64,000 nucleotides of DNA from Stegostoma tigrinum (Eukaryota), in NCBI RefSeq assembly GCF_030684315.1, contig NC_081382.1, forward strand, positions 10,603,267 to 10,667,266, given 5' to 3'. Numbering within the stretch: the stretch's first letter is position 1; the number at the start of each line of letters is the position of its first letter. The notes under the pieces were generated by a model. That model saw only the letters and a list, made by a program, of their open reading frames with translations, did no database searches and was not told where the DNA came from. The position numbers were made by a program, and so were the translations under genes. Positions 10,205 to 62,613 of this stretch are shown here, piece after piece.

Positions 10205-10660
10205 ATTCATTCATGAGATGTGGGTGTCAATGGCTGGGCCAGCATTTATTGTCTAAGTCCAATTGCTCAAAGGTTATTTAAGACCACTCTCCTATAAGCT
10301 AGATTAGATAAGGATAAAATAGTTTCACTCTGTAAAGGACTTCAGTGAACCAGCTGCATGTTTTTACATTTGACAGCATTTATGTGGCTACTATTGGGTT
10401 TTCTTTTGACTCCAGATTTCACTTTTTTTTAAAAAGACATCATCTGCTATTGTATCAGAGATAATGGGAACTGCAGATGCTGGAGAATGCAAGATAACAA
10501 GTTGTGGAGCTGGATGAACACAGCAGGCCAAGCTAAGATCTGCTTGGCCTGCTGTGCTCATCCAGCTCCACATTTTGCTATCATCTGCTATTGTGAGATT
10601 TGAGCCCATAAACCCAGATTCCCAGATTACTGTCCCAGTGACAATACCACTGAGCCATCA
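10205..10660 (-). mobile_element. tRNA-derived SINE (family B), interrupted by a Penelope fold-back
   Basis: ttcattcatgagatgtgggtgtcaatggctgggccagcatttatt tail; tRNA-like head near 10595-10660; homologous to 37058-37702 and 45183-45520. Confidence 0.7.
10454..10579. mobile_element. Fold-back (inverted pLTR) Penelope mini-insertion lacking the hammerhead
   Basis: Arms inverted about taagatct; exact 15-bp TSD atcatctgctattgt at 10439-10453 and 10580-10594. Confidence 0.88.
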
Positions 10661-10946
10661 TGTCCTCTGTGCATGCTTTGAAAATGAAGAGTGTGATTGG
10701 TGTACTTCCACCAGACCACTGACTGCCTTCATGTATAAATTCTTTCAGTATTCAATCTCGCTTTCTCATTCCAAACAATGCACTCAGTGAGGAACTCTGT
10801 AAAATTTCACTAACTTTGTTTCCAATTTCCACTCTCTATGCACTTGATCTCTGATGTTTCAGTTCCTCCCTTAATTTCTATACCACCACTTCTGATGATG
10901 AGATGTAAAACAGGGATCCACTCCAAGTCAACTGTCTGTTATAGCT

Positions 10947-11170
10947 GAGGAGACAGGTAGTGGAAACTGCTGAAGCTGGAGAATCTGAGATAACATGGTG
11001 TAGAGCTGGATGAACTCAGCAGGCCAGGCAGTGTCAGAGGAGCAGGACAGCTGATGCTTCGGGTCTGAACCCTTTTTCTGAAGAAGGGTCTAGGCCCGAA
11101 ATGTCGGCTTTCCTGCTCCTCTGGTGCTGCTTGCCCTGCAGCGTTCATCCAGCTCTACACCTTGTTATTT
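10947..11170. mobile_element. Fold-back Penelope mini-insertion with central hammerhead motif (11078-11105)
   Basis: Inverted arms; CTGAAGA-A-GGGTCTAGGCCC-GAAA-TGTC; TSD ctgtct(g/c)ttatagct at 10932-10946 and 11171-11185. Confidence 0.88.
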
Positions 11171-11499
11171 CTGTCTCTTATAGCTATCTTGAATAAGCTT
11201 CTTCACACCTTGTTTATCTAAAAATTCTATTCCATTTTCCAAGTTTCTGAATCTTCGTTGCATCGATTTTGACATTATATGCCTCGAGGTCTTCCTTTCC
11301 TCAACTGAGGGTTGTCTTTTGCCATGACCACTGGGGTCCTCGGCTGTGTCTGCCCAACTTCTTTTATGTCTGGCCCCTGCCTTTTCCTTACATCCAAAAC
11401 AGTATTAGGATTCTCAATGCCCTCAAATACACCCAACCAGCTTCCATATTCAAAAGATTGTTGTATAACACATTTTTTGCTTCCGTTAACATGATGACT

Positions 11500-11960
11500 G
11501 TTCTACCAAACACATCTTCCACTTCTTTCTCCTTTCATCATTTCATAGGGACTGTTCTCTCCATGACACTCTGGTTTTCTCATCAATCAATTTGTAACAT
11601 TTTTTTGTGCCAACATTAAAAGCAGAAATTGCTGGAAACACTCAGCAGGTCAGCCAAACCCTGCAGAGAAAGAAATAGAGTTGATCTTTTACATGAAATA
11701 TGACTCTTTGCCAGGAGCCCCTATTCTTCAAACTGCACTTTTCCATGCAAGCACAAGAGATACAATGCATTATCAACCCCGTCACCTCTTCTTGTTCCAC
11801 CACCTAGGCTCCAAAGGCACTCTATCATTAAAGCAATGATTTACTTGAACTCTTTTCAATGAAGTGTACTGCAATCACTGTCTATAATTCAGTGTGTTCT
11901 GCATGGGGAACTCCAACAAGGAATGCTATGGATTGCCTGTACATCTCTGACATAAAGACC
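11500..11960 (+). mobile_element. Highly degraded Penelope-like GIY-YIG region with a family-2 pLTR fragment (11618-11715, minus) inside
   Basis: Weak similarity to 30860-31060 (ctctccatgacactctggtt; gtgtactgcaatcactgt). Confidence 0.45.
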
Positions 11961-12324
11961 TCAAGCCAATGAATGCTGTACAAGCCATGCTGCGTGAGTG
12001 CAGTAGGAGATTGTCGGGGCAATATGATGGTTGATACCTCCTCCCACCTTCCCTGTTCACCTCCACAGCGCTCAAGAATGACAGCAGTATATATACCAAC
12101 ATGTTGGCAAATACTCACTGTTCAAACAGACAGGAAATCAGGCCCATGGCCTTTTGCAGTGAGGATATGTTGAATTGTCTTTCAGAATAGTGGCCCATTG
12201 GTGTCAATTTCATTGTGAGCTATCATTAATTGTGCTTCATGGAGAAGGCCATCATCAATCAGCAGTGACCAATGACATGGTCAAGATTGTTTGTAACCAG
12301 GATTTGTGTCCCATGTAATAGGAA

Positions 12325-12448
12325 AACAGAGAATTGCAGATGCTGTTAATCTGAAATAAAAACAGTGTTGGAGAAACACTTCAGATCTAGCAGCATCTGT
12401 AGAGATAGAAAGAGAGTTAACGTTTTGAGTTCAGTGACCTTCCATCAA
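12325..12448 (-). mobile_element. Penelope-like pLTR, family 2, degenerate hammerhead
   Basis: Homologous to 27045-27175, 33175-33306, 40748-40862; minus strand reads gatggaaggtcactgaactcaaaacgttaac. Confidence 0.65.
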
Positions 12449-12521
12449 TTCTATTTCTTTGAACACACTTTAGACATTAAGACATGACCACTTGTTTGAA
12501 GGACATGCAGTGTTTTTTAAA

Positions 12522-12969: not shown

Positions 12970-13790
12970 ATTTTGAGGTTGTTGAACTCAGTTTTAGACA
13001 TAGAATGCTGTAAAGTGCCTCAAACATTATCTACCTCCTATGTCCATTAGGCTTTACAGAAACACTACCACGTGTGATCGGCTTTGGACAAGGTGGTACA
13101 CTGAAAATGACAGGTGAATAACAGGCTGCTGTTTCATCCGGAAGGAATGTTTGAAGCCTTGGACAGTGAGGATGGAGGAGGCAAAAAGGTAAGTATTTCA
13201 CCATCTATGATTGGATGGAAAGGGGTAACCACATGGCAGGGGTACAGAATGAGATATTCGGGGTAATAGAGAAGTGAACTGGTTAAAGAGAGAAAGGTCT
13301 CCTCAGAATTCTTACAGGAGAGGGCAAATGAAGACATGTGAATTAGCATTGTGCTGGAGATGGTGCAGGATGATTCTTGGAATATGGATCCTGAAAGAAT
13401 GGACAAAGCAAGGGCAAGAATAATTTTATCATGGTTTCTGGAAAGAAGCAGAGGGGTTAAGGGCAAATGTTTAGGATCTATAGGCCAGACACACAGGTGA
13501 GTGACATGTATACCACTGTGGAGCGGTTGGGAGTGGAGAAACTTCAATCAAGGGAAAAAGAAAGACCTGTCAGAAGGGCAGTTGTGGAAGATAGCATCAC
13601 TGGGACAGGTAAGTCAGAGTTGGAGAAACTGTGAGGTTGGAATGAGGTGCTCACAGGCAGCAGAGTACAAGGAAGCCCAGTCCAGGTAGCTGTGGGAGTC
13701 AATCGGTTTATCATCAATTTTAACAAATGGTCAATCCTCAGAAATGTAGACACAGAGATCAAGAAAGGGAAGGGAGAGTTCAACTTGGGC
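12970..13790 (-). mobile_element. Degraded Penelope-like element (RT C-terminal region to GIY-YIG end)
   Basis: Minus strand reads LPFLDLCV...KPIDSHSYLD, matching 30410-30500. Confidence 0.7.
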
Positions 13791-19610: not shown

Positions 19611-19611
19611 G

Positions 19612-20949: not shown

Positions 20950-22430
20950 TGGTAATGTTTGAGACTCTAGAAGTTTTGGACAAGAGAAAGGGAAGCAAAG
21001 ACAGTAAAGGAAAGTGTAGTTGAAGGCATTGATGCTGTTCTCTGCTGCAAAGAATATGATCCCAGATGGCTGTGTTACCTGTTCCATGTCAGGGCTTGCA
21101 ATAGTTGCTCAGGGCTGAAGTGGAACTTTGAATGGGAATGACACGGACAGGGCAAAGAAGGAGCTTTTGCATAGTCTGTATGAGGTTATAGACACCAGAT
21201 GAGGAAGCAGAACTCAAAGGGTCAAAATCTGTGGACAACTACCTCAGCCACATGCAAACCAGACTAGAGAAATGAATGCATGGCCCAAGGACTGCTGGAG
21301 GAGAAGTGAGTTCCAGTTCTTGGGGCACTGGCACTCTTACTAGGGAAAGTGCGATGTGCATCATTTAGTTAGTATCCAGCTGACTTGTGCTGGGCCAGTG
21401 CTTTGGTGAGCTACATAACTACAGGATGGATTTTAAATTAATTAGTGTGGGCAAGGTATCAAACTTGGGAAAATACTATAAAGAGTCGAGGTAAATTAAA
21501 AATGAAAGGTGGTATTATAGCAAATGATAAACAGACTGAGAAAAATCAGTAGATTGTACCAAATCTAAGAATAAATCAACAGATAAGACTGAAGAATACC
21601 AAAAGAATAAAACCAAAGGCTTGGAGATAGCAAGAACTGCAGATGCAGGAGTATATGACAACACAGTGTGGAGTTGGAGGAACACAGCAGGCCAGGCAGC
21701 ATCAGAAGAGCAGGGGAGTTGATGTTTTGGGTCAGGACCCTTCTTCAGAAAGGAAGGATTCTGAACTGAAACATCATTTTTTCTACTCCTCTGACACTGC
21801 CTGGCCTGCAATGTTCCTCCAGAACAAAGGCTCTGCACGCAACATTCAAAATAAAACACATGAACTGAGAGCAAAAAAGGAAATAATTAGGTGTAGCCTG
21901 GGAGCCATTAGAGGAAAATGGCTGCAGAACAACAGAACTGTTCAGTTGAATATTAAGTGGTTTTGGAAATTTAGGATGGATGGGAAGTGAGGAAGAAATG
22001 CAGGGGTGTCTTCTTTAATTAGTGAAGTGATTTTCATGATAGCGAGGGATAACACAATTTCAGGAAATCAAGATATAGAGGCAATTTAAGTAGAAATGAG
22101 AAACGATAAAGGCAAGAAATCACTTGATGGAGTGACGTACAAGCCCCCCCAACATTAACCACGTGGTGGGGCAAAGCATGATGGAATAATTAGTGGGAGT
22201 CTGTCAGAAAGGCGTAGGCGCTAATTACGGGATATTTTATCCACATATCAATTGGAAACACCAAATGGGCCAAGATAATGTAAATGAGGGCTTCATAGAT
22301 TTTTTTCAGGATGGCTTTTGGAACAGTATCCTGTAAGGCTGGTATTATGCAATGATCTCAAAGTGAAGGCATCTCAAGGTGGGGGCAGTCATGATATAAT
22401 TTAATTTTACATTCAGTTTGAAGATGTACA
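20950..22430 (+). mobile_element. Degraded CR1 5' region: ORF1 (SGNH esterase-like) and start of ORF2 endonuclease
   Basis: MNAWPKDCWRRSEFQFLGHW (ORF1-like) near 21272-21335; ELRAKKEI...AIRGKWLQ...QLNI (APE N-terminus) in ORF 21643-21990. Confidence 0.65.
21622..21824. mobile_element. Fold-back Penelope mini-insertion nested in CR1
   Basis: Inverted arms; minus-strand ctgaagaagggtcctgacccaaaacatc; TSD caaaggct at 21614-21621 and 21825-21832. Confidence 0.8.
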
Positions 22431-22682: not shown

Positions 22683-23228
22683 ATAGAGTCATAGAGCACA
22701 GAAACAGACAGTTTGCTCCAAACAGTCCATGCCAAACATAATACCAAACTAATCTAGTCACATCTGCCTGCTCCTAGCCCAGATCCTTCCAAACCTTTCC
22801 TATTCGTATATCCATCCAAATGTCTTTTAAATGTTATAATTGCGCCCACATCCACCACTTCCTCAGGAAGTTCACTCCACACGTGAATCATCCTATGTGC
22901 AAAAATATTTGCCTCTTATGTTTTTTTTAAATCTCTCTCTTCTCACCTTAAAAATGTATCCCCTTGTCTTGAAATTCCCCATTTTAGGGAAAAGACAATG
23001 GCCACCAACAGTCTCCATGCCTCTCATTTATTTTATAAACTTCCATCAGGTCACATCCCAACCTCCTACACTTCAGTGAAAACAAGTCCCAGCGTATCCA
23101 GCCTTTCCTTACAACTCAAACCTTACACGCCCAACAACGTCCTGGCAGATCTCTTCTGATCCCTCGCCAGCCTGATAATATCCTTCCTGAACCTGGATGG
23201 CCAGAACTGGACATAATGTTCCAGAAGA
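22683..23228 (-). mobile_element. CR1/HER1-type LINE 3' fragment
   Basis: atagagtcatagag tail; gtcttgaaattcccc, ccagaactggaca motifs. Confidence 0.8.
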
Positions 23229-23746
23229 GCATTTCTTAGCTTGTTGGCAGTATTCAGTTATTGGCAAATAAAACAGCTGTGTGAAATAACCAGCTCCACT
23301 TGCAGTTCAAACGTTTGAGATCCGTTAGTCTTCCAGGATAATCTGAGGTAAATTGGGCACTTTTTAGAACCATGAGTGACAACCTTGTAGTGTGTGTGTG
23401 ATATACAGCGAGAAAAGATCTGAATGCAGTCAATCTTATTTTACAGGATGGCTTTGATGCACCCTATTTCGGTTTCGATTTCAAAGTTTACCAGAATGCC
23501 TCATATGTAAGTTGTAGGCATTGGTCACTTTTCCAGTCACTGGTGTTACTCATGGTTCACCAGGTCCATGACACATTAGATTTGAAAAATTCAGTCTGTA
23601 CTTAACCTGAGAGCCTGGGTCTTCAGAAGCACTGCTCTTCCAAGAGACCCTCACGATCTTCGTCTTGTAGCGTTTAATTGTCCTGCATTTGGCTAAATGT
23701 GTCTGCTTATTATTGATGTTTACTATGGCTGAATGTTTAAGGATGG

Positions 23747-24094
23747 ATCATAGAATCCCTACAGTCTGGAAACAGACCTGTCAGCCCAACAAGTCCACAG
23801 TGACCCTCCAAACAGCATCCCACCCAGACCCATCCCCCTACCCTTTCCCTGTAACTGTGCATTTACCATGGCTAGACCACACACCCTTGAACACAATGGG
23901 CATATTTGCATGGCCAATCCACCTAACCTGTACATATTTGGACTGTGGGAGGAAACCGGAGCACCCAGAGGAAACTGACACAGACACAGGGAGAATGTGC
24001 AAACTCCACACAGACAATCATCAAGGGCAGGATTGAACGCAGGTAACTGGCACTGTGAGGTAGCAGTGCTGATCACTGAGCCACTGTGATACCC
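23747..24094 (-). mobile_element. HE1-type V-SINE, full length
   Basis: tRNA-like head (tggctcagtg A-box), V domain gtgtggagtttgcacattctccc, CR1-derived tail. Confidence 0.9.
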
Positions 24095-27044: not shown

Positions 27045-27175
27045 AAGCCAAAAGAACTGTGGATGCCATAACTCAGTAACAAAAACAGAAATTTCTGGAA
27101 AAGCTCAGCAGGTCTGGCAGCATTTGTGAAGAGAAATCAGCATGCATATTTCAGGCCCAGTGATCCTTCCTCAGA
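27045..27175 (-). mobile_element. Penelope-like pLTR family 2 with hammerhead-like motif
   Basis: Minus strand ctgagga-a-ggatcactgggcct-gaaa. Confidence 0.7.
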
Positions 27176-27704
27176 TCCTTCTCAGGATGTCACAGTGAAG
27201 TCTTAAAAAATAAAAGGTCAATGTAAAATATAAAAACAATTTATCTGCTGATACTTTTTATTCATTACTCAGTATTTTACATTTATGACACATAAAATCC
27301 TCTGTCACTATATGCATGACTAAGTGAGATTTATTCACCTTACAGAAGTGATTTTAGCCTATTTCCACTTGCTATAACTTGTCACGATAAATTTTGGGTA
27401 TTGAAACCTCCCATTCTAACCTCATCAATTATAAGTCTGTGGAATAAGCCAGATGAGGCTAAAACAAAGAGCAAGTTTACAATTTTTTGTTAAAGCTTCC
27501 AAGCCCTTCAGCTCGAAAGAGTTGTGATGCAGAACCAACCAACTCCCCAGGTCAGGGTACAATGTTGCCACCAATCCTCCTTTCTACTTGAGAACAAAGC
27601 CCATAATCAAGTTAATTGCAAGTTAAGTGAATGCAAACTTGTTGATTGATAGGGCAACTGATCTTCTTTTCCTGACTAGGTTGATTAAATTTTTGTTTGA
27701 AAGC

Positions 27705-27910: not shown

Positions 27911-28221
27911 TTGATAGTGGTAGAGGATGAACCCCACTGAGTCTTAGCAAGAAGACGTGGTTGCTTTAACGCTATATAATTTATTGCATGTTAGCAATCA
28001 GTATAATTTACACAGTCCTTAGCTTTTATGTCAGACTAACCAATTAGGAGTTACCAAGGACCCATTGGGGTAGTTGCAGGAATCTTTTCCTCCAAACAAG
28101 ATGGTTTAACATCAGATTTGATAAATATAATGTATTCTGCACCCTTATCTCTCAGAACCATTACCTTGACCAACAGGTGCCTTTGTTGAAGATAACTACC
28201 ATCATCCTAATGAAGTAGATC

Positions 28222-28398
28222 TCCCCCTGCTTCCCTATTTATTTCAGAATCCCCTTCCCCTCCCCCATTTCTGAAGAAGGGTCTCGACCCCAAACATCAA
28301 ACTTTCCTGCTCCTCTGATGCTGCTTGGCCTGCAGTGTTCATCCAGCTTCACATCGTGTTATCTCAGATTCTCCAGCATCGGCAGTTCCTACTATCTC
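28222..28398 (+). mobile_element. Penelope pLTR fragment with tail and mutated hammerhead (28271-28298)
   Basis: ctgaagaagggtctcgaccccaaacatc...cctactatctc. Confidence 0.85.
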
Positions 28399-31729: not shown

Positions 31730-31886
31730 GGGGGCAATTTAGCACTGCCAATCCACCTAACCTGCACATCTTTGGACTGTAGGAGGAAACCAGAACATCT
31801 GGAGAAAACCCATGCAGATACAAGGAGAATGTACAAATTCCGAGGGTGGAACTAAACCCGGGTCCCTGGTGCTGTGAGGCAACAGT
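31730..31886 (-). mobile_element. HE1-type SINE, partial
   Basis: ccaatccacctaacctgcacatctttggactgt. Confidence 0.8.
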
Positions 31887-45520: not shown

Positions 45521-46669
45521 CTAAATGACAAACTAGTTGTTTATATTTGAAAGGTGGTAACACATTTCAGCATCTGTCTCTTTTTTATTCATTTTGCACT
45601 AATTGGTGAATGAATGATGCATTTTGAACTTTGAATTTTGGATGGGTGATGAATTTTAGCCCATTGCTCCTGTGTCAGATCTTTCAAAGATCTATGCCCT
45701 TATTCACACACGAGGCCTTTCACCCTAATTTGAGACATGATTTTTCCCTTTTGGCGCTGAGTTAATTACATTTCGAAACCAAAAGCATTGAATCTGCTTC
45801 CACCATTCTTTCAGAGAGTGTGTTGCAGTTCACAATATCATTATCATCGAGCACCTGTAGATCCCGATATGAATCGCTTGACAAATCATTACCACTCAAT
45901 AGGCAGCTCGGCATCTCTGAAATATTATTTTATCACTTGGAATCTACTCCTGGGGCCATGGTGTAAAAAGGCTTGTTGGGGATAAATGGATTCATGTTAT
46001 AAGGCCAGAAGGATTGTAACAAAATCAATGAGCATCTATTGCAAGGTGGAAATAATCTCACTGTCCAATGCTGTGATGATTACTGAATCAAACAAAATGG
46101 TATTTCATTGCAAGAAATCTGATGTTATGCAACGTTCCAACAACAGATATTTTAAAAGCAATGCAATTCTAATTTTCAAATTGATTCCTGTGACTTCAAA
46201 ATTCTTCCTTCGGTTGAACAGATTTTCCATGTGTGTGCTGAGGGGCTTACAGTAATCCAATACAAAATAAATTGATACATCCTCCTTTTCAAACATGTAC
46301 TAGTATTAACGTAAAAGAAAGCTCTGCCCTCACTGCTTTAAAGGATTGCATAATGGTAGGCCCTGAAACAGCAAGAAAGAGGAAAGAAACAATGTAGTAA
46401 GGATAATGATGGGAACAGATTATTGATACACATTCAGAACAAATCTCAGAATGAAGATCCAAGCAAAGTCAAACTTTATGTTAGTTGCATGTGTTTTAGA
46501 AACTCTATCAGAGTCAATGATTTCTTCTTACTTTCAGGTATTTTTCAATTTCAAGTGGCTGTTTTTCCTTTAGTAGGTATGTTAGGTCAGAAACTTTCTG
46601 ATTTATTATAGGGTCAGATTGCAAATTGATACTTTGCTATGCTACTGAGAGTAATATGAGTGTTGACTG

Positions 46670-46937
46670 GATTAGATTCCCTACAGTGTGGAAACAGGCC
46701 CTTTGGCCCAACAAGTCCACACCACCCCTTGAAGCATCACACCCAGACCCCATTCCCCCATAACTTACACATCCCTGAACACTACGGGCAATTTTAGCAT
46801 GGCCGATCCACCTAACCTGCACATCTTTGGACTGTGGAAGGAAACCGGAGCACCCGGTGGAAACCCACGCAAACACGGGGAGAATGTGCAAACTGCACAC
46901 AGACAGTCGCCCGAGGCTGGGATCAAACCCGGGTCCC
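46670..46937 (-). mobile_element. HE1-type SINE missing the first part of its head
   Basis: Near match to 34087-34352 reverse complement. Confidence 0.9.
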
Positions 46938-47835
46938 TACCATGGCAACCTCTACAAGACATGTCAAACCATCGACATGGACTCTGCTGGCACATATAGG
47001 AACCCAACCCACCGTGTACTTGGTAGATGCAGATGTGACTTGGCCAATGTAGTCTATCTCATATGCCGCAGGCAAGGATGTCCTGAGGCATGGTATATTG
47101 GTGAGACCATGCAGAAGCTATGATAATGGATGAAGGGATACCACATCATGATCACCAGACAGGGGTGATCCCTTCTCATGGGGGATGTTTCAGGGGTCAA
47201 GGACATTCAGCCTCTGATATTTGGGTAAGCACCCTCTCAAATTGAACTTCAAGAATCACAACAACACAAAATTGTTGAGTAGAGGCCGACAACCAAGTTC
47301 CATACCATGATGATGGCCTCAATCATGATCTAGGGTTCATGTTGCACTANNNNNNNNNNNNNNNNNNNNNNNNNNNNNNNNNNNNNNNNNNNNNNNNNNN
47401 NNNNNNNNNNNNNNNNNNNNNNNNNNNNNNNNNNNNNNNNNNNNNNNNNNNNNNNNNNNNNNNNNNNNNNNNNNNNNNNNNNNNTGGATGTAGTTGGAGG
47501 CACTTTCTGTTTTGCTCAAAAAATCTGACCCCAGTTTAAAACATAGATAGATTCTGAGCAAGACCTCACTTAAAATCTAGAAAGGAATCTAGATTTTGCA
47601 ATTTAAACAGTAGCTGCCTTCCTAACCGATTAAAGATTCAACAACAGGCAGCCAGTTTTATGGTTGTTACCTTTCTGCTTATAAACTCTGGGTCTATACC
47701 CTCTCTCACACACAATGCCTCAGGCAAGAACTGAGCTATGACAGCTAATGTTTTCAAATAAACAGTTGGAGTATAACCTGGTGTCATGTGATGATTGACC
47801 TTGTCCACCCCAGCCCAACACCAGCATCTCCACAT
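46938..47835 (+). mobile_element. Penelope-like element family 3: GIY-YIG region and terminal repeat, spanning the assembly gap
   Basis: NVVYLICRRQGCPEAWYIGET in ORF 46827-47123; terminal repeat 47715-47835 matches 16658-16741. Confidence 0.8.
47350..47484. other. Assembly gap (135 N)
   Basis: Run of n. Confidence 1.
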
Positions 47836-49029
47836 CTGTTTTTCTCTCCACGGATGCTACCAGACCTGTCGAGTTTCTTCATCACTTGTTGTTCTTGTTA
47901 CAATGGATGTAACACTTGTTGTCTTCTTGTTATACTTTTAAGACTGACGGGAGCAAACACGAAAAATACAGGCAGCATGGACTAGAAAGTTCCGTGAAAC
48001 GCTAAAGTTTATGCCCCATTTATTTTATTGTATTTTTGCTAAGTCGGTACACATTTATTGAGAAAATTTTGTGCATTTGGACCTATGACTGTACCACTGC
48101 CACATTGATATAAAATAAGAATTATCGATTTTTGAATATCATCAGCCAGTTTACTATTTCAGTTTTTCAGAGACTGGAGTGGTTTCAAAATGAGATCAAG
48201 AATTACCTTAAATAGGCACAGGCATCACCCAATTCATACAGATTGATTTCATGAAATCTGGCCAATATTTACAAAGGAAAGCCTGAGCTGAAATTCACAT
48301 ATTCCTGAAGGGCATCAAAACCAAACAGGGCACATCCTGTGTGGTTTGTAAAGGCCCTTATATGATTTACACCATTATGATAAATTTCACATGTTAGAGA
48401 CAGAACATTGCCTGCAATTATCAAGGCTGGACGCAATGAAACATGTAAGCTGATACTTCAAGTTGTTCTCACTTTGGCAGAAAAAAAATAGGATTTAGAA
48501 TGCAGAATTGAAACAGAACTAACCAATCATGGTACAAAGTGTGGAGCTGGATGAACAGGCCAAGTAGCATCTTAGGAGCACAAGGGTAATAGGTTAAAAT
48601 CAGCATGCCTTTATCCTTTTTTTTCTCAGTGTCTTCAGATAAGAAAAATGCTCTTATTTCACTCCAGAAAGCCTTATGTTTGGCTCATTATTGCTACGCA
48701 AGATAATAGTTCACTATATGTAATGAGACAATGGCACAGCTTCTTGTTAAAGAAGTACTTAAATAATTTTTCTGCTACCAACCAACTGAGAGACTGAGAA
48801 AGGGGAACTGATTTATTACTCCTCATCTGGTAGGAACACTTTCCTTAAAATTATTCTATATTGTGGTACTCAGCAACACCTTCCTGATTTTATATTTCTA
48901 GTAATGCTAATTATTCTAATTTTTACTCAGATTTTCTCTATTGTTATCCCCATGTATCAATTCCTTGATGGATGGTATCACTAGGAAGTCACTAACATCT
49001 TCAATCCAATCAGTATTCCTCAAAAAACA

Positions 49030-49198
49030 AACAGTCTAGGTGGTTTGGCAATGCTAAATTGTCTGGAGTGTTCAGGGATGTGTAGCTTAGGCGGGTTATA
49101 AGGGAATGAGTCTGGGTGGGATGTTCCAAGAGTCGGTGCGGGCTTGTTGTGGCTGAAGGACCTGTTTCCACCTGTTTCCACACTGTAGGGATTCTATG
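49030..49198 (+). mobile_element. HE1-type SINE 3' half
   Basis: atgctaaattgtc...ccacactgtagggattctatg. Confidence 0.8.
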
Positions 49199-49698
49199 TC
49201 CCATATGCATGGAAGCATCAGCACCTACAAGTTCCCTTTCAAGCCACAGAATGGGAGCTATAATCACCATCCCTTCATTTTTGATAGGCCAAAGCCCTGC
49301 ATTATCCCCCTAAAAGCATTGTCACTGTTTTCTAAGCTGTTGATGTTGCAGGCCTTTTCTCTCTGAATGATCTGCTTCTCTCTGAAAAAAATCCTGTACA
49401 CTCTGTTTGACCTTCTGTTTTTCTGCCTCCTGTGCCAAATGCACATCATTACATGACAAAAGTAATTTACTTGCTCTGTCTCATACCACTGTTTCTCATG
49501 CACAGCATGTTCATATTAAAGGTTTTGTAAATTGCCAAAATGTCAAAAACAAAACTTAAGTCAATCCCAGCCATTCATAAAACACAATGAAACTCTGCTA
49601 TGTCCTTCCCTTCTTAACAAACACGAGATAGAAATACAAATCACACTTACAATTATCCATGGTTCTGCTGCAAAGCTAAAAAAAGTGAATGGTGGTAT

Positions 49699-49831
49699 CT
49701 GAAACTGCTTGAGAAACTCAACAGATCTGCCAGCATCTGATGAAGAGATGTTGGACATAAAACATTAACTTTGTTTTCTCCCCACAGATTCTGCCAGACC
49801 TGTTGAGTTTTGCCAGCAATTTGCAGTTTTC
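49699..49831. mobile_element. Fold-back insertion of family-2 pLTR with degenerate hammerhead at 49737
   Basis: aaactcaacagatctg inverted with cagacctgttgagttt; ctgatgaagag...aaaacattaac. Confidence 0.6.
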
Positions 49832-49904
49832 TTACATATGTTTCTGTCCTCTTTAAAACAAATGTTTCCAAATAATAATGTATAATAATAATCAAGTCAT
49901 CTGT

Positions 49905-50090: not shown

Positions 50091-50164
50091 ATATCACAGT
50101 CTTTCATCATAAATAACAAATTTGCCCTTCATTGTGGCTCTGATTCCTTACAAACAAATGTTTC

Positions 50165-50356
50165 AGAGATAGTAGGAACTGCAGATGTTGGAGAGTCTGA
50201 ATTAACAAGGTGTAGAGCTGGATCAAGACAGCAGGCCAAGCAGCATCAGAGGAGCAGCATTTCTGAAGAAGGGTCTAGGCCCGAAACGTCAGCTTTCTTG
50301 CTCCTCTGATGCTGCTTGGCCTGCTGTGTTCATCCAGCTCTACACCTTGTTATCTC
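50165..50356. mobile_element. Fold-back Penelope mini-insertion with consensus hammerhead
   Basis: Inverted arms (aacaaggtgtagagctggat / atccagctctacaccttgtt); tail on left arm only. Confidence 0.9.
50263..50290 (+). ncRNA. Minimal hammerhead ribozyme motif, best-preserved copy
   Basis: CTGAAGA-A-GGGT(CTAG)GCCC-GAAA-CGTC with palindromic ACGT in place of stem III. Confidence 0.75.
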
Positions 50357-50429
50357 AAAGGTTGTGGAGGCTGTTTGGAAGGGGAGAGGAAGGTGGAGAG
50401 TGGGTCACAAGTGGCAGTGGAGATAGGGT

Positions 50430-51243
50430 GAAGCCATGGGCTGAGAAATGACAAATGGAGTTAAATGCGGAAAAGTGTGAGGTGATTCACTTTGGAAGGA
50501 GTAACAGGAATACAGAGTACTGGGCTAATGGTAAGATTCTTGGCAGTGTGGATGTGAAGAGAGATCTTGGTGTCCATGTGCATAGATCCCTGAAAGTTGC
50601 CACCCAGGTTGATAGGGCTGTTAGGAAGGTGTACTGTGTGTTAGGTTTTATTGGTAGAGGGATTGCGTTTCTGAGCAATGAGGTCATGTTGCAGCTGTAC
50701 AAAACTCTGGTGCGGCCACACTTGGCATATTGCCTACAGTTCTGGTCGCCGCATTATAGGAAGGATGTGGAAGCATTGGAAAAGTTGCAGGGGAGATTTA
50801 CCAGGATGTTGCCTGGTATGGAGAGAAGGTCTTATGAGGAAAGGTTGAGGAACTCAAGGCTATTTTCTTCAGAGAGAAGGTTAAGAGGTGACCTAATAGA
50901 GACATACAAGGTGATCAAAGGATTAGATAGGGTTGACAGTGACAGCCTTTTTCCTTGGATAGAGATGGCTAGCAAGAGGAGACATAGTTTTAAACTGAGG
51001 GATGATAGATCTAAGACAGATGTCGGAGGTAGTTTCTTTACTCAGAGAGGAGTAAGGGCATGTAATGCCCTGCCTGCAACAGTAGTACACTTGCCAACTT
51101 TAAGGGCATTTAAATGGTCATTGGATAAACATATGGATGATTATGAAATGATATAGGTTCGATGGGCTTCAGATTGGTTTCATTGGTCAGCGCAACATTG
51201 AGGGCCAAAGGGCCTGTACTGCACTGCAATGTTCTATGTTCTG
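50430..51243 (+). mobile_element. CR1-clade LINE 3' fragment with open 233-aa ORF2 C-terminus (50455-51156)
   Basis: KCEVIHFG, LYKTLVRPHL, RRLRGDLIETYK; tail gttctatgttct. Confidence 0.92.
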
Positions 51244-52077: not shown

Positions 52078-52413
52078 AGGGGCAACACTGTAGCTCAATG
52101 GTTAGCACTACTGTCTCTCAGTGTATAGCAAAGTTTTGATTCCATGCTTAGGCAACTGTGTGAAGTTTGCACTTTCTCCCCATCTCTGTGTGGGTGCTGT
52201 CCTCTGGGCGCTCCGGTTTCCTAACACAGCCTAAAAATGTGCACGTTAGGTGGATTGGCCATGGCAAATTGTCTGTAGTGTCCAGGAATGTGCAGCCTTG
52301 GTAGATGAGCCATGGGAAATTCAGGGTTACAGGCATGGGGTGGGTCTGGACGGGACATGCTTCAGAGGGTCAGTGTGGAATGGCCTACTTCCACACTGTC
52401 AGGATTCTATGAT
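52078..52413 (+). mobile_element. HE1-type V-SINE
   Basis: tagctcaatggttagcact head, V domain, tail. Confidence 0.85.
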
Positions 52414-54489: not shown

Positions 54490-55790
54490 ATCCTTTGTTC
54501 GCAATCTCCTCTGCAATTGGAAATTAACTTTCCTTATTCCCACTTTCAATACCATTAAACACTGAGCACGTCTCTGAAATCTTCCCCTAACTTGCACTGA
54601 TCTAAGGAGCAGAGCCATAAGTTTCTTGAAATAACTGAAGCCCTTTATCCCTATTATCGTTCTGGTTAATTTCTTCTGCACCCTCAGGTCCCAAGATACT
54701 TCCGAAAGTGTGGTACACAGAACTGAACCCACTATATTAGTAGATAACAAAATGTGAGGCTGGATGAACACAGCAGGCCAAGCAGCATCTCAGGAGCACA
54801 GTAGCTGATGTTTTGGGCCTAGACCTTTCATCAGAGAGCCCGAGAGTCTAGGCCCGAAACATCAGCTTTTGTGCTCCTGAGATGCTGCTTGGCCTGCTGT
54901 GTTCATCCAGCTCCACACTTTGTTATCTTGGATTCTCCAGCATCTGCAGTTCCCATTATCTTTGACCATTATACTAGTACCTACCTTATCTTTTACAATG
55001 GCTCAGCGTCACTTCCTTGCAAGTTTTTGCAAGCATGCCTCTTTTTATAAAGCTGAAGATCTGATCAGCTGTTTCAACAGCCTTGTCACCTCATTCTGCC
55101 ACCTTCAAAAATATACGTTCATGAATCAAAGTCTCTGTTCCTGGGCTCCTCCAAAACTATAACCAGTCAATTTATATTACCTTTCTTAGTTTTTCTTCCC
55201 AAAGAGCATCACTTTTCAGTTCTCTCTATTAAATTTAATCCTCAACTTGCAATCTTCCTGTTCTGTGGCAAAAGGGAATATTGGGAGATAAGAACCAGAT
55301 TTCCTGCAAATTCCATCTCCTCTTCCCTGAGAAATCTCAGAGGCATCCCATGTGAACTGGGTGACTTTTCCACTTGAGTGCTGCCAACTTTTTTAGCTCT
55401 TTCAATCTAACTTTGATGGAATCCTATTCTCATCTCCCTGCGAACGCATCCTATAAACTGGCATTAACAGATCCATCCCCTTTTGTGAAGATGAATACAA
55501 TGTATTCATGTAACTTCAGTTTTTGAAAAATGTTCCCTGTTAGTCTTAAGCACTCTTTTTGACCTCTTAATTCCTTTTTCAATTCTCCCTGTAATTTATG
55601 CATTCAACTTGCTTCCATACTGATTTAAAAAGCTGAAATTCATGAAATAATTCCTTTCTCTGTCCCATTTTAATCTCTGTACTGTTTCTCAATAAAGGAA
55701 CTCCAGTCTTGGATGTTTTTCCTTTTCCTCATCACGGAAATGTATGTCTCACCCATACACAAGACCAACACAACTTTGACCAACCTCCTT
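54490..55790 (-). mobile_element. Old CR1 fragments hosting a Penelope fold-back
   Basis: LRVQKKLTRTIIGIKGFSY in ORF 54487-54771; further decayed ORF2 upstream. Confidence 0.6.
54743..54965. mobile_element. Fold-back Penelope mini-insertion
   Basis: Inverted arms, tail on right arm; TSD ccactatattagta / ccattatactagta at 54729-54742 and 54966-54979. Confidence 0.88.
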
Positions 55791-55798
55791 TCATCATT

Positions 55799-56017
55799 GA
55801 TGATAACAAGGTGTAGAGCTGGGTGAACATAGGAGGCAGCAGGAAAGCTGACGTTTTAGGTCTGGACCCTTCTTCAGAAAAAGTTTTCTGATGAAGGGTC
55901 CAGACCCAAAACGTCCACTTTCCTGTTCCTATGATGCTGCTTGGCCTGTTGTATTCATCCAGCTCTACACTTTGCTTTCTCAGATTCTCCAGCATTGGCA
56001 GTTCCCACTATCTCTCT
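55799..56017. mobile_element. Fold-back Penelope mini-insertion with two back-to-back hammerhead motifs
   Basis: cccttcttcagaaaaagttttctgatgaaggg centre; TSD tcctttca at 55786-55793 and 56018-56025. Confidence 0.88.
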
Positions 56018-57679
56018 TCCTTTCACAATTTACTGTTTTACCTGACAATCTTTGATTCCAGTCCATTTGAGTCAGATTGAAAGGCTATGAGAAATGGAAA
56101 GAGTAATCATGGATGATGGAGATTTTATTGAAAACTATTATCTTTTTGTAGGATTTGAAAAGCTGAAAAATGAAATGGAGAGGCTTAGGGATTTTGGGAA
56201 GATTTTCGTGAATCAGCCTTCCAAAGCTAATTGCCACCAACTTTACAAATCATGCTTCAAACAAGTGATACGAGTGATGAGCGATAATTTCCTTTCTTGT
56301 CAAATCCTTATTTGCTTTCTAAAATAAATTAATTCAAAATCTGATCCCCACAAGAAATACCACTGCATTCAAAACAAAGTTAGTCTTGTCAAAACAAACC
56401 TCTGACAATATGCTGTACTTCAATGCTTAATTTGTTGCATTCCTAATAAACACCAAAGCACCATATAAACAGGCAGACAAATATTACACTGGGTTGTTTA
56501 AAATGTAAATAGCGTCACAAGGCTATAAACGGCTAACTCCATTTGATTCACATCAAATATTGATGTAAGAGACAAGAACATGACGGAGCTCACTAATTAT
56601 TTTTGTTGACTGTTACATGTGTCCTTGGGCTCCATAATGGTTTTCACAGCATGCATCTACACTCATAGGCACTACTGTTCCTGACATTGTATGGGTGAGG
56701 ACATTAGTCATGCTGAACCATGCAGAACAATCAGAGCATGAGGTCAACGAGCAAGTAACAACAATTCAATACAATAGGTGCTATTTTGGAGTTCAATGAA
56801 CTCACCAGCACCCTGTCTTAACCTTGGTCATCCTAACAGATATTCAGCAACAGGAAGGAGTTCCAGCAGCATTATAAAAAAAAATCAACCACAATTGATA
56901 GATTAGTTGTCAGTTGATTTATTTTAGCTATGCCTTTGATTTCATACAATCTCTGTAGTTGTTTCAAATTGTAAAGATCAAAATAGAGATTCTTTTTTCC
57001 TGGTGAAAAGACTTCTCCAAAAACAGTTGAAACCCACAGTGCTCCAGAAAATGACTTTGTCTATTGAAGAATGGCATGGCTTAATGAATAAAGAGAGGAC
57101 ACACTGAGCATGGCAAGGTGTTGAAAGGGGAAGAGCTCTTGAGTCCAATTCCACCAAAAGTATTCAGAGAACATTTTTTCTACCTGCATCTCAAATAGGA
57201 CAACAATGTCTGATACTTGTACTTGACTGGGAAAGTTTTAACTAAAATCTGCCAACCGCTATAACCTCAGAAGGAAAAAGAAGAGGTTTCACACTGCTGG
57301 TGGCTGTGAAGATGATCAGAGTTTTGAATTTAATGCATCACAATCCTGCCAGGCTAGAACTGTTTATATTTGCAACATCTCACAGTGTGTTGGTGGTTTA
57401 GGAAATTCACTCCACCTCTCGATTCAATGAGAGCTAATTACATTTCCCTGTGTCTTGCCAGAGGCAAGCAGGTGGAAAAAGCACATGGGGCTGAATTTTA
57501 CTAAAAATCAGCACCATCTCAATTTCACAGAGTTTTTTTTGGATTTTCTTTCGGTGAACCCTAGGAAGTGTTCCCTCATAATTTGACGCTGCTACTACCA
57601 TGATATATATTACTCCTCTACACCACTGCTCTCATACTGTCTTGAATCTGCCAATGACATATATTCTCGATGATGCAGC

Positions 57680-58620
57680 AGTCCAAAGATGAAGGTCACA
57701 GAATCAGGATATGGGGGTAGGCCATTTTGGACTGGGATGAGGGGACATTTTATTCTTAGAGAGTATAAGCCTGTGGCATTCACTACCATATAAAGCAGTT
57801 GAGGGCAAAACATTAAATGTTTTCAAGAGGCGTGAGGTACAGTTCTTCGGGTGAAAGGTATCAAAGAATATGGGGAAAAGGTAGGGTCATAGTACTGATT
57901 AGGATAATCATGATCCTCTTGAATAGTGGATCCAATTCAAACAGCTGAATAGTCTACTCCTATTCCTATTTTCTGTGTTTGCATTGTAGGTACACAGCGT
58001 GGTTAAGAAAGCATTTAGCGCACTTGGCCTCATTGCTGAGACCTTTGAGTATAGGAGTTGGGATGTCACGTTGAGATTGTACAGGACTTTGGTCAAAACT
58101 CTTCTTGCAGCACTGTGTGCAGTTCCGGTCACCCTGTTATAGGAAAGATATTGTCAAGCTGAAGAGGGTTCAGAAAAGATTTACCAGGATGTTGGTAGTA
58201 ACGGAAGGGATAGTCTTGTAAAATTAGGTTGGACAGGCTGGAATTTCTTTAATTGGAGTGTAGGAGGTTGAGTGGTGACCTTATAGAGTTTAATAAAATC
58301 ATAAGGGGTATAGATGAGGTGAATGGCAGGTGTCTTTTCCCTCAAGTGGGGGTGTTCAAAACTAGAGGGCATATTTTTTCAGGTGAGCGGAGAAAGATTT
58401 ACAAAGGACATGATTGGCAACTTTTTTTCACACAGATTGATTCATGTGTGGAATGAACTGCCAGAAGAAATGGTCGATGTAGGTACAGTTAACAACATTT
58501 TTAAAAGACATTTGCGGAAGTGCATGACTAGGAAAGATTTGGAAGAACACGGGCTAAATGCAGGCACATGGGATTAGTTTAGTTTGGGGTTAGGATTGAC
58601 GTGGACTAGTTGTACTGAAA
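57680..58620 (+). mobile_element. Two adjacent CR1 3' fragments (57680-57980; 57985-58620)
   Basis: ECRRLSGDLIEFNKI and VWNELPEE in ORFs 58253-58577. Confidence 0.8.
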
Positions 58621-58974
58621 TGTCTGTGCCTGTGCTGTCCTTGTGTCCGCCTATCCCCCAAACTCCATTACATATCACTCAGTACAACTTAGTACAAGTC
58701 AGTGATGGCTTTCAGCACCTCCAGACAAGCTTCCACTACAGAGCAACCTATAAAGGGTCGATACAGTGCACCAATTTAGTTTGGTTATTTAAAACTAGTG
58801 TAAATACATTAATATGTTGATAATGTAAATATGAAGTTGCAGTTGAAGACAGGGCTAGACTTAGAAGACTTTTCTTCTATTTTGGAAGATTCCAATTGGT
58901 GCCTACACTTTTGCAAATATCCAGCCTCACCCATCTGGTCCTTTTTTGGCCAAAAGGCCAGTTGCTGGTCTTTT

Positions 58975-59789: not shown

Positions 59790-60232
59790 GCATTAACTGC
59801 TCAGTTCACTGTACCTTGTGTCTGAGCCACAAGGCTCTAGGATCAAGTCCGACACTAAGGTTTCAGTACAAAAATCTCTGCCTGACATGCCAGTGCAGCA
59901 ATGGAGCAAAACTGCACTGTCAAAGGTGCCGTGTTTTTGATGAGACATTAAAATGTGCTCCAATCTACCAGCCCAGGTGGATGTAAAACATCCATGTTTG
60001 AATTTTTGAGTGACAACAAGGTATTCTGTCCATAGTGCCCTGACCAATATTTATCACTCATTCAACATTATCAAATCAGCTAATTTGGTCATTATCATAT
60101 GTTTTGGCTGTGCTCGTACTGGTTATCATGTTTCCTATATTACATCAGTGATTACACATTCAAAAAACATTTCATTGGAAGTACTTTGAGACATATGGTG
60201 CTCATGAAACATCCAGTATATATTCAATACTC
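59790..60232 (+). mobile_element. Deu-domain SINE (SacSINE1-like), near full length
   Basis: tRNA-like head, gcactgtcaaaggtgccgtgtttttgatgagacattaaa...caggtggatgtaaaacatccatg Deu-like core. Confidence 0.7.
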
Positions 60233-60321
60233 CTTCCCTCATTTCAATGTTTTGCACTGCCCATAGCACAGTATATTTTAAATGAAGAACATGCAGAAGA
60301 CAGAACATTAACATATATCAA

Positions 60322-60593
60322 AGGGAGGCATTGTGGCCTGCACCAGCGACCTGGGATTGATTCCAGCTTTGGACAATTGTCTGTGTGGTGGTTGCAACTC
60401 ATTCTCCCCGTGTCTGAGTGAGTTTCCTCCAGGTGCACTATTTTCCTCCCACAATCCAAAGATGTGCAGATTGGATGGATTAGCCATGGGAACTGCAGAG
60501 TTACAGGGATAGGGTTGGGGTGGGGGTGCGGAGCTCTATGGATGTGAATTCAATGGGCCAAATGGCCTGGTTCCACACTGTAACAATTCTATG
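60322..60593 (+). mobile_element. HE1-type SINE with internal deletions
   Basis: V domain and tail. Confidence 0.8.
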
Positions 60594-60674
60594 GCCCCTA
60601 CTGTCTCATTTCTATCCATTAAATTTCAATTTGTTTTCAGTGGAGTTGATACTTCAGACTCAGAGGGCTCCAGT

Positions 60675-62000
60675 TTCATAAATCTATGCTGACTCTTTTC
60701 TCTCTTGTCTCTGTTTTTCCCGTGCTGTGGTATTAAATCTAATTTCATCCCTACTACCAATGTCATGCTAACTGATCTATAATTTCCTTTTTTTTCTCTG
60801 CATTTTCTTTAAATTGAGAGTTTACATTAGCTGGTGCCTATTGAATCTTGAACGATGACCATCAATGCATTCGGTATCCCTCGGACCATTCCATTAAATA
60901 GTCCAAGATGTAGATTATCAGGCCCAAGGGATTTATCAGCCTTTAATCCCATTAATTTCATCAAAACCAATTCCTTAATAATACTTGTATTCCTCAGTTC
61001 CTCATTATCACTGGGTCATGTATTGCTCAACATTTTTAGAATGTTATTTGTGTCCTCCTTTATGAAGAAAGATTTGAAATAGATATTTAATTAGCCTGAG
61101 AATTTGTTCCCTATTATAACTTCCACAGTTTATAACTGAAGGGATCTACATTTGTCTTCACTCAACTTTTTCTTGATGTACCTAATAAAGCTTTGACACT
61201 CAGTTTGAATTTTCCCCAAAACTTATTCTCATACTCTATTTTACCCTTAATGATCAACCCCTTTGCCCTCCTTTGCTGTCATGTAAACAATTCCCAATCT
61301 TCGGCTCTGCTGGTCTGTTTGGTCAATTTGTGTGCCCTTTCTTTTGATCTAATTTCTATTGTTAGCCATGGCTGTGCTATCTTTTTCATTTTAATCTTGG
61401 GCCAGAGAGAAATTAGCAATTACTGCAGTTCCTCGGGGAAGGTTGTGGAAGCAGATACTAGAGTGGCTTTTAAAGGACATCTTGACAAATAATTGAATAA
61501 GATGGGAATAGAGGGGTATGGTGCCCAGAAAGGCAGAGGGTTTTAATTATGATGGGCAGCATGTTGGTGCAGGCTTGGAGGGCCGAAGGGCCTGTTCCTG
61601 TGCTGTAATTTTCTTTGTTCTTTGTTCCTTTATGGACTCTTTAACTGTTTTCCCTAAACCTAATCCTGTCACCTATTCACTGTCATCACTTTAAGTAATG
61701 TTCCCCAATTTATCATAGCTATCTCACACCTCATAACCATCGTGGTTTCCTCTAGATTCAGAACCTTTGTCTTGGAATCAACTGCATCACTCTCCATCTT
61801 AATGAACAATTCTATCATATAATGTTCAATCTTCACAAAGGGACCTTACACAATTAGGTTATTCTCATTCCCGGTCTAGGATGGCAGTTTCCAGGTTGGT
61901 TCCAGAAAACAATTCAGTACACAGGAATCCAGGAATTCCTCTTCTGTGGTATTGCTATGATTTGATTTGCCCAATCTATATACAGATGAAAATCACCCAT
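60675..62000 (-). mobile_element. Degraded CR1 ORF2 5' half (related to 5540-7310) with nested plus-strand CR1 tail at 61434-61623
   Basis: ttatcaggcccaagggatttatcagcc (KSPGPD region); nested piece flanked by gttcct at 61428-61433 and 61624-61629. Confidence 0.75.
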
Positions 62001-62450
62001 AAATGCAGCAGTAACTTTATTGCTTGTGTCCCTGAATATATTACTGTTAACAGAAGCTTGTTTGAAGTAAATTAACTTCTGCATTTGCTGACAAAAATTC
62101 CATTACTGCACTTCAGAAAGTAACTCATTGGCTGTGAATCACTTTGGAATCTTATGAGGACATGAAAGTTGATATACAAATGAATGTAATTTCTTCTTTT
62201 GTTTTGTTCTTTACTTGTATCTTGGTCTTCATATTGATTCATGTGAGAGACTGAAAGGTGTTGTTCATAAATGTTTGCTCTCCTTTGGCATTTTGCTTAA
62301 GTTGCCACTCTTCTGGAAGTTGAATCATTATCACAGAAGTTAACTTCAAAACCAATCATTCTTTTCATGTAGAACAACGCGATTGTGCTTCTGAGGTTGA
62401 AAATGCATTTTGCATGAGAAATTCATTTCTATCAAGTAAACTTTTAATTT

Positions 62451-62613
62451 GTGGAGCTAGTAGGAACTGCAAATGCTGGAGAATCTGAGATAACAAGGTG
62501 TAGAGCTGGATGAACACAGCAGGACAAAGGGTCTAGGCCCAAAATTTCAGCTTTCCTGCTCCTCCGATGCTGCTTGACCTCCTGTGTTCATCCAGCTCTA
62601 CACCTTGATATCT
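62451..62613. mobile_element. Fold-back Penelope mini-insertion
   Basis: Inverted arms; exact 10-bp TSD cttttaattt at 62441-62450 and 62614-62623. Confidence 0.88.

Follow-up and report, generated by a model that had tools for sequence, protein, structure and literature searches.

Short fold-back insertions derived from the end of a Penelope-like retrotransposon in a 64-kb stretch of the Stegostoma tigrinum genome

We analyzed a stretch of 64,000 nucleotides from Stegostoma tigrinum (NCBI RefSeq assembly GCF_030684315.1, contig NC_081382.1, positions 10,603,267 to 10,667,266 of the forward strand), referred to here as the window, and found in it seven short insertions in which two copies of the ~130-nt end of a Penelope-like element (PLE) are joined head to head. 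All coordinates are positions in this 64-kb window, and all counts come from this one window only. The inserts hold just the terminal ~130 nt of the element, and none has a direct copy bearing an open reading frame (ORF) between the repeats, which is what sets these fold-backs apart from described PLE insertions. We interpret them as independent, ORF-less integration products of a Neptune-type PLE, dead-on-arrival by-products that would arise when both target nicks prime reverse transcription internally near the 5' end of the transcript and the short cDNAs run out and are end-joined; for this interpretation as a whole we estimate a probability of about 0.55.

Self-comparison of the window combined with a profile search returned seven head-to-head pairs of the repeat end. 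The profile hidden Markov model (HMM) of the ~130-nt terminal region was seeded with seven window copies, three of them arms, and it gave the arms 38-133 bits, against a best score of 6.3 bits in five shuffled windows. All seven insertions have the same layout, with the antisense arm first and the sense arm after it, both corresponding to the terminal region of the PLE copies at 29752-31709 and 8739-9222, and they measure 126, 224, 203, 193, 223, 224, and 163 bp (copies 1 to 7) between their target site duplications (TSDs). Among inverted repeats within 400 nt, eight of the nine longest in the window come from these seven insertions, the remaining one, at 49702-49822, being an older fold-back from a related family with a different pseudo-long terminal repeat (pLTR). 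Among the young insertions, seven of 12 were fold-backs and five were single-arm copies. Self-comparison, HMM scores, and inverted-repeat ranking thus agree with a preliminary description, made from the sequence alone, that had listed all seven; five of its start coordinates were exact and those of copies 4 and 6 moved 2 and 5 nt earlier, but it had overlooked the eighth, older fold-back and three young single-arm copies. Its density of about 1 per 9 kb holds in the window but comes from a single window, for which the 95% interval spans 2.8-14.4 per 64 kb. The coordinates are collected in Table 1.

Table 1. Fold-back insertions, single-arm copies, and related features in the window (TSD column: left / right and matching bases where available)
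Feature	Position	Strand	TSD	Remarks
Fold-back copy 1, subfamily A	10454-10579	tail arm - (~10458-10533), short arm + (~10533-10582)	10439-10453 / 10580-10594; 15/15	
Fold-back copy 2, subfamily B	10947-11170	tail arm -, short arm +	10932-10946 / 11171-11185; 14/15	within ancient PLE ORF remnant
Fold-back copy 3, most diverged	21622-21824	tail arm -, short arm +	21614-21621 / 21825-21832; 8/8	short arm stops ~18 nt early; junction ambiguous
Fold-back copy 4, subfamily B	50163-50355	tail arm -, short arm +	50155-50162 / 50356-50363; 7/8, within background	intact minimal hammerhead core 50263-50290
Fold-back copy 5, subfamily A	54743-54965	short arm -, tail arm +	54729-54742 / 54966-54979; 12/14	junction filler 4-7 nt
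Fold-back copy 6, subfamily B	55794-56017	short arm -, tail arm +	55786-55793 / 56018-56025; 8/8	junction nearly symmetric
Fold-back copy 7, subfamily B	62451-62613	tail arm -, short arm +	62441-62450 / 62614-62623; 10/10	
Fold-back copy 8, older, different pLTR family	~49678-49840	tail arm - (49678-49739), short arm + (from 49736)	9 bp, candidate; 8/9, weak	tail arm degraded; short arm from hammerhead core
Broken 5'-truncated PLE	29752-31709	+	9 bp	1958 bp; short-site end without tail; no inverted arm
TATA-like box (-34) and initiator-like motif (A at -4)	31583-31616	+		hammerhead C at 31617; predicted transcription start
5'-truncated PLE 3' end	8739-9222	+	12 bp	484 bp; tail; no inverted arm; intact hammerhead core 9098-9125
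Single-arm copy with tail	7597-7728	-	T-rich, probable	~130 bp; 5' boundary as in fold-back arms
Single-arm copy with tail	28221-28398	+	searched for, not found	178 bp, reaching -50
TATA-like box (-35) with initiator-like motif (A at -4)	28236-28270	+		subfamily B long copy
Single-arm fragment without tail	48534-48584	-	searched for, not found	~50 bp
Solo, older related pLTR family	12327-12451	-	not found	~125-130 bp; hammerhead-like start at core; tail
Solo, older related pLTR family	27050-27177	-	not found	as above
Solo, older related pLTR family	33178-33306	-	not found	as above
Solo, older related pLTR family	40747-40874	+	11 bp	as above
Further fragments, older pLTR family	11613-11694, 40978-41068, 47837-47913			

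The arms end in two classes, counting positions from the C of the hammerhead core. Six of the short arms end at +91 to +94 and that of copy 3 at +75, while those with the tail reach about +126 to +131, and the same two clusters recur in the long copies, 31709 being the short end and 9222 the tail end. Exactly one arm carries the tail in all seven copies, for which an independent choice on each side gives at best p=0.008; the tail is ~33-35 nt long in six and ~52 nt in copy 3. The preliminary description had reported one long arm and another ~33 nt shorter, shorter still in copy 3, as we observed, and had placed reverse transcription at two fixed positions; two end classes do exist, but each cluster is a few nucleotides wide and not an exact base. 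By eye, most tail ends carry 2-4 extra bases (copy 2 perhaps more), and 1-3 nt are common to several arm ends and the start of the TSD. The short arm of copy 6 has a 16-nt internal deletion and 8 additional nt ahead of the TSD.

The TSDs are 15, 15, 8, 8, 14, 8, and 10 bp long in copies 1 to 7, with AT contents of 50-90%. Six of them exceeded a null of 1491 random site pairs (p<=0.009) and copy 4 did not (p=0.31); the preliminary description had likewise counted six recognisable TSDs. On both sides of all seven insertions, the strand expected of target-primed cDNA adjoins the TSD. Copy 2 splits an ancient PLE ORF remnant (~10740-11920, +) comprising the end of the reverse transcriptase (RT), the thumb, the linker, and the start of the endonuclease (EN). 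Compared with shark proteins, the flanks of this copy are colinear: the left match stops and the right one begins at the same few codons, and therefore the overlap corresponds to one TSD with no sequence deleted. The right-flank match is strong (E 6e-12) and the left-flank match is weak, aligned by eye from translations. These flanks may serve as a proxy for an empty site, but at the DNA level no uninterrupted paralogous empty site was found for any of the nine insertions examined.

The central junctions differ in all 21 pairwise comparisons, the best pair being identical at 19 of 30 positions, and, read by eye, the seven junctions have either microhomology of 0-3 nt or filler reaching ~7 nt. 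Two subfamilies, A and B, are defined by nine alignment columns that separate single-arm copies. Both arms belong to the same subfamily in six of the seven copies, as had been stated for all, but the short arm of copy 3 is ambiguous. The true pairing of arms beats 5040 permutations overall (p=0.002), within-copy arm identity is 75-93%, and private variants common to paired arms within subfamily B did not reach significance (p=0.09). The earlier claims of a different junction in every copy and of an independent event behind each one are therefore upheld by the unique junctions, the 8-15-bp TSDs, and the asymmetric ends. The same three features argue against a unit resembling a miniature inverted-repeat transposable element (MITE) or short interspersed element (SINE), in which one fold-back master is amplified whole. 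Such a unit would account for the small size, the long inverted repeats, and the high local density, but it would have to produce 21 of 21 unlike junction pairs, TSDs of variable length, and ends offset by ~33 nt, and the same layout occurs in two subfamilies and in an older family; we regard it as extremely improbable.

The parent was identified from the copy at 29752-31709, whose ORF, with a broken reading frame, covers the RT core, the thumb, a Cys-rich linker, and a GIY-YIG endonuclease. It aligns piecewise with shark proteins across RT, thumb, and EN. Of 312 candidates, 217 proteins matched the RT fragment at E<=1e-10. The best named RT matches were from carpet sharks (Rhincodon, 78%; Stegostoma, 74%; Chiloscyllium, 66-71%), and the EN pieces are 91% identical to the Rhincodon protein. 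Pfam found RVT_1 (below the curated cut-off) and GIY-YIG in that Rhincodon protein and no family in five window ORF fragments taken alone, so that the assignment of the parent rests on its relatives. In translation the GIY-YIG domain has a Cys pair between the motifs and two downstream His at ~31000-31140, the CCHH motif, whose two Cys lie between GIY and YIG, that defines EN-containing (EN+) PLEs (PMC8557442; here and below, statements on PMC3846280, PMC8557442, PMC8969392, PMC2377424, PMC4209133, PMC3681739, PMC5753468, Craig et al. 2021, and bioRxiv 10.64898/2026.07.22.740005 refer to parts of those texts). A linker CxxxCxxC lies at ~30900 in the window copy, and the pattern occurs in three of 14 named relatives, including the best match, most others stopping before EN. 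Neptune and Nematis are distinguished by a CX2-5CxxC linker, which Penelope and Poseidon lack (PMC8557442). The Penelope-like origin proposed earlier is thus supported by the RT/thumb/EN alignments, the GIY-YIG Cys/His residues, and the linker, and the parent is probably of Neptune type, a label taken from the linker and the vertebrate host rather than from a tree. The two ORF-bearing young copies directly abut their TSDs with no inverted arm, and the window contains neither a pLTR-ORF-pLTR copy nor a long copy with an inverted arm. The 484-bp PLE copy sits in the loop of an older ~31-bp inverted repeat (8695-8725 / 9236-9266, 84% complementary).

The repeat probably contains a minimal hammerhead as defined in PMC4209133, with a conserved core, helix II, and a palindromic minimal helix III. 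The exact core pattern survives only at 9098 and 50263 and is degenerate elsewhere among the aligned copies. Helix II is paired in 90.6% of cells over 16 copies, compared with at most 68.8% when slid; covariation analysis of helix II gave 0 compensatory changes, with no excess over shuffles, and an Rfam scan of the window gave 0 matches at the gathering score. The 5' ends of the arms lie near this core: the tail arms of copies 1 to 7 start at +51, +6, -3, +35, +7, -4, and +53 and the short arms at +40, -3, +5, -5, -4, -6, and +6, so that 10 of 14 arms start within -6 to +7 of the hammerhead C. No fold-back clearly extends past -10, compared with three of five single-arm copies (p=0.045). Neither arm contains the other, and the short arm leads by ~40-47 nt in copies 4 and 7. 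The older copy 8 has the same direction as the young set (tail arm +48, short arm -1). The core is likewise the starting point of the solo at 7597 and of four solos from the older family, and no common upstream sequence is evident; since these are not palindromic, the 5' boundary is independent of the palindrome.

Upstream of this boundary, all three long copies have a TATA-like box at -34/-35, and two of the three have an initiator A at -4, 30-31 nt downstream of it, judged against what we take to be the TATA and initiator consensus. The pair was matched in 4 and 11 of 100,000 shuffles, with a window background of ~4e-4 per 5-nt slot. These motifs predict an RNA 5' end at ~-4, where the arms stop. 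Hammerhead cleavage was rejected as the source of the 5' ends, because 10 of 14 arms contain bases upstream of the cut and none begins at +28, the latter in line with uncleaved RNA being the main in vitro substrate. A splice junction as the boundary was not favoured by eye either, with the acceptor-like site at about -24 instead of -4 and the short arms of copies 4 and 5 matching genomic upstream bases. We did observe a splice-acceptor-like pyrimidine tract whose terminal CAG lies ~24 nt upstream of the hammerhead and which overlaps with the TATA-like box (9040-9075, 31570-31595, and 28221-28250); the D. virilis Penelope intron ends at hammerhead helix I (PMC4209133). In a single case, the short arm of copy 5, three non-matching C's follow the 5'-most base of the cDNA (54836-54842). 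RTs add C's opposite a cap.

The geometry of the inserts, the end clusters, the TSDs, and the independence of the copies are what we observed, and an account of their origin would have to supply an RNA start, a coupling of start sites to strands, RNA templating of both arms, and a repair route. In the scheme that we propose, the pLTR promoter would start an RNA a few nucleotides upstream of the hammerhead core, as the motifs and end points suggest. The RT-GIY-YIG protein, probably as a dimer, would nick both strands 8-15 nt apart, a stagger shown by the TSD lengths, leaving two 3' ends. Each 3' end would prime reverse transcription internally, one at the downstream cluster and the other ~33 nt upstream, with one start site per strand, a coupling that the one-sided tail in all seven copies suggests. 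Both cDNAs would stop at or before the RNA 5' end, presumably mostly on RNA not cut by the hammerhead, and their 3' ends would then be joined, with 0-3 nt of microhomology or up to ~7 nt of filler, and gaps filled by a repair route, giving the order TSD, inverted arm, junction, direct arm, TSD. Short cDNAs are expected because the start sites lie only ~100 and ~130 nt from the 5' end of a transcript starting at ~-4; with that start, long copies need a tandem template. The chemistry is known in vitro from Anolis, whose PLE protein nicks both strands and extends each of them, and two internal RT starts delimit the genomic tail (PMC11167929). RNA downstream of the start sites is required, mainly uncleaved RNA is used, and a dimer is predicted (PMC11167929).

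Several points weigh against priming from both nicks. Start-site use in vitro showed no difference between strands (PMC11167929), so one tail per insertion is not predicted by it alone. Only seven or eight events in one window are available, and no window copy has a pLTR running into an ORF start, which leaves a 5' pLTR template unsupported here. For a single RNA to template both overlapping arms, strand displacement would be needed; otherwise two RNAs would have to take part. The 5' positions were read by hand, and the significance of their clustering depends on the null (p=0.009 for a fitted exponential, 0.016 for a uniform, and 0.25 for a short-mean exponential distribution); in one gapped alignment the tail arm of copy 3 may reach -28, past the predicted start, in which case the p value for the contrast with single-arm copies at -10 goes from 0.045 to 0.22. 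The short arm extends further 5' in five of seven copies, with one tie and one shorter, a nonsignificant difference (p=0.11), and the tail arm of copy 2 may start at -2 rather than +6, a possible second tie. The promoter motifs were found post hoc in related copies, copy 9224 has its initiator at -10, and an older family D copy has no TATA match. The earlier proposal of priming from both nicks therefore stands as far as the geometry, which fits, and the in vitro chemistry, but RNA templating of both arms is not established, as snap-back and collapse would look alike, and the shortness of the arms had been left unexplained. In a stronger version, a dimeric PLE ribonucleoprotein would yield the fold-back as its default product in vivo, with its subunits on two start sites of one RNA and one nick each, the trailing tail-primed RT displacing the leading cDNA and both stopping at the capped 5' end a little upstream of the hammerhead; we consider this speculation possible but doubtful.

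In the most serious alternative, snap-back self-priming, a single cDNA or antisense template folds and is copied back, leaving one arm DNA-templated, and the tail stems from short separate priming or from endonuclease resolution of the intermediate; we judge this account to be unlikely. It has been proposed for head-to-head Penelope repeats (PMC3846280), and the tail has been ascribed to EN-mediated resolution (PMC8557442). The common subfamily of paired arms and the nearly symmetric junction of copy 6 agree with it, and if the short-arm cDNA were the one that folded, the short arm should reach further 5', as seen in four or five of seven copies. However, snap-back from the tail arm cannot give the extra 5' sequence of the short arm in copies 1, 4, 5, and 7, the asymmetry of copy 3 is reversed, and none of the seven junctions showed a priming stem by eye. 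A product identical to ours, including 5' ends limited by the transcript start, would also be left after insertion if a canonical element, an inverted pLTR followed by pLTR-ORF-pLTR, lost its ORF between the direct pLTRs in the manner of solo-LTR formation. Adineta Pen2 and Pen2a are described with this arrangement, including a tail on one side and a TSD of 9-10 bp, and solo pLTRs have been ascribed to recombination or deletion (PMC3846280). Yet both kinds of long precursor are missing from the window, and collapse must have hit seven of 12 young insertions across only ~100-130 bp of homology, which makes this history quite unlikely in our view.

The insertions could also be independent while their junctions are not cDNA ends, if each started with a single near-perfect palindromic centre that was later altered by hairpin-tip deletions. 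Long palindromes are known to gain central asymmetry, no arm clearly passes -6, and copy 6 is nearly symmetric, but the solo at 7597 and four older solos share the boundary without a palindrome, and the filler at junctions 5 and 6 fits end-joining; this variant appears improbable. Priming of short cDNAs from both nicks is the reading that we retain.

The layout itself is established for PLEs, in which a truncated copy in inverted orientation, a tail of 30-40 bp on one end, and a TSD have been described (PMC3846280, PMC8557442, PMC8969392, PMC2377424), and the preliminary description had cited inverted pLTRs with a 30-40 nt tail in agreement with published accounts (PMC3846280, PMC8557442). EN+ PLEs such as Penelope of Drosophila virilis, Adineta vaga Pen2/Pen2a, and those in Fig. 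2 of Craig et al. 2021 have in common with our copies the head-to-head inverted 5'-truncated copy, the 30-40-bp tail, which is often confined to one end, the TSD of the whole insert, and TATA/Inr-like motifs in the pLTR. In contrast, their described copies keep an ORF-bearing direct copy, whereas the fold-backs have ~50-130-nt arms and no ORF and make up seven of 12 young insertions. For Anolis carolinensis Poseidon PAc, studied in vitro (Frangieh et al. 2024, PMC11167929), the points of comparison are two-strand nicking and extension, two internal RT starts that bound the tail downstream of a hammerhead, the use of uncleaved RNA, a predicted dimer, and AT-rich targets, the TSDs of the seven copies being 50-90% AT. 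It belongs to another clade, the main text of that study describes no double-primed fold-back products, and start-site use showed no strand difference, in contrast to one tail in seven of seven here. The minimal hammerheads in the pLTRs of PLEs (Cervera and de la Pena 2014, PMC4209133) compare as follows: the same core, an extra base before helix II, a G-C closing pair, and a palindromic C-G for helix III. In Schistosoma mansoni, opposite-strand hammerhead pairs lie 100-700 bp apart among many solo motifs, unlike here, where the cores are adjacent or one is truncated; the available portions of PMC4209133 give no TSD, tail, or junction analysis of the pairs.

Outside PLEs, L1 twin priming with 5' inversion is reported to involve two nicks that each prime cDNA, leaving an inverted and a direct segment, end-joined, between TSDs. 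Its segments reportedly copy successive, mostly non-overlapping parts of the RNA, whereas the fold-back arms copy the same stretch from starts 33 nt apart. MITEs are likewise short and non-coding with long inverted repeats, but the fold-backs lack symmetric terminal inverted repeats, a fixed TSD length, and a common internal sequence, and they come from the end of a retroelement. Animal non-LTR retrozymes (Li et al., bioRxiv 10.64898/2026.07.22.740005) are likewise non-coding, hammerhead-bearing, and pLTR-derived, in a chondrichthyan, but they are head-to-tail tandem units with their own cycle, whereas the fold-backs are head to head with unique junctions; Tandem Repeats Finder detected two short unrelated arrays in the window and no retrozyme-like tandem array. 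A possible link to the Eulor/UCON hairpin repeats was dropped because the parts of PMC5753468 at hand gave it no support. Thus the layout, both-strand nicking with two internal RT starts in vitro, and Penelope inverted-repeat small interfering RNAs (siRNAs) are already published, and the present analysis adds the ORF-less form as the commonest young insertion type in the window and the start of arms near the predicted RNA 5' end. A literature search covering mostly titles and abstracts returned no description of ORF-less fold-back PLE inserts as a main insertion class in sharks, a form that repeat-database curators may know, nor, within the same scope, of arm 5' ends gathering at a predicted start.

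Other repeats are also present in the window. A degraded PLE thumb/linker fragment (13078-13784, -) lies head to head with the remnant at ~10740-11920, and a third PLE family (63196-63860, -) consists of a degraded EN C terminus, a C-rich tract, and a pLTR without a tail. RT fragments of long interspersed elements, presumably CR1/L2-like by their motifs, were found at 1348-7423, 50452-51156, and 60888-62000, including a 558-bp pair that is 94% identical (1348-1905 / 6586-7143). A SINE-like family of ~250-340 bp has at least 10 copies (23743-24088, 29124-29471, 31732-31887, 34048-34353, 34903-35214, 37261-37516, 46668-46938, 49032-49197, 52132-52413, and 60340-60590), and an old dispersed repeat of ~450-550 bp with 67-72% inter-copy identity occurs at 22683-23229, 33519-34031, 38346-38959, and 58030-58636. 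An assembly gap of 135 N spans 47350-47484.

In computed folding, all seven copies far exceeded shuffles (z -6.7 to -20.5), and the longest helix without a break measured 13-44 bp, as the preliminary description had anticipated in calling them strong hairpins; if transcribed, they would form imperfect double-stranded RNA (dsRNA) hairpins, which could act as the siRNA or ADAR substrates that it proposed. An Rfam scan of copy 4 in E-value mode gave 44 weak matches of generic hairpin type below the gathering score and no hammerhead family, and the many microRNA-family matches among such sub-threshold hits were rejected as evidence that this copy is a microRNA. For annotation, fold-backs could be mistaken for MITEs or, as these matches to copy 4 illustrate, for microRNA precursors. 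siRNAs matching Penelope inverted repeats occur in Drosophila (PMC3681739), and the fold-backs could be a dispersed source of dsRNA.

How PLEs come by their inverted repeats and one-sided tail is not settled in the literature: self-priming or resolution by the endonuclease is preferred in earlier papers, and the 2024 in vitro study leaves later steps unvalidated (PMC11167929). Because these minimal inserts keep two start sites, two cDNA ends, a junction, and a TSD, and seem common, counting them across the genome can tell the models apart with no bench experiments, the countable predictions being one tail per insert, a 5' pile-up at the predicted start, and a short arm that extends no less far than the tail arm. 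If the fold-back were indeed the default product of a dimeric PLE ribonucleoprotein, shark genomes would hold thousands of records of nick stagger, start-site coupling, and the RNA 5' end, and most jumps of the element would plant hairpins able to silence it.

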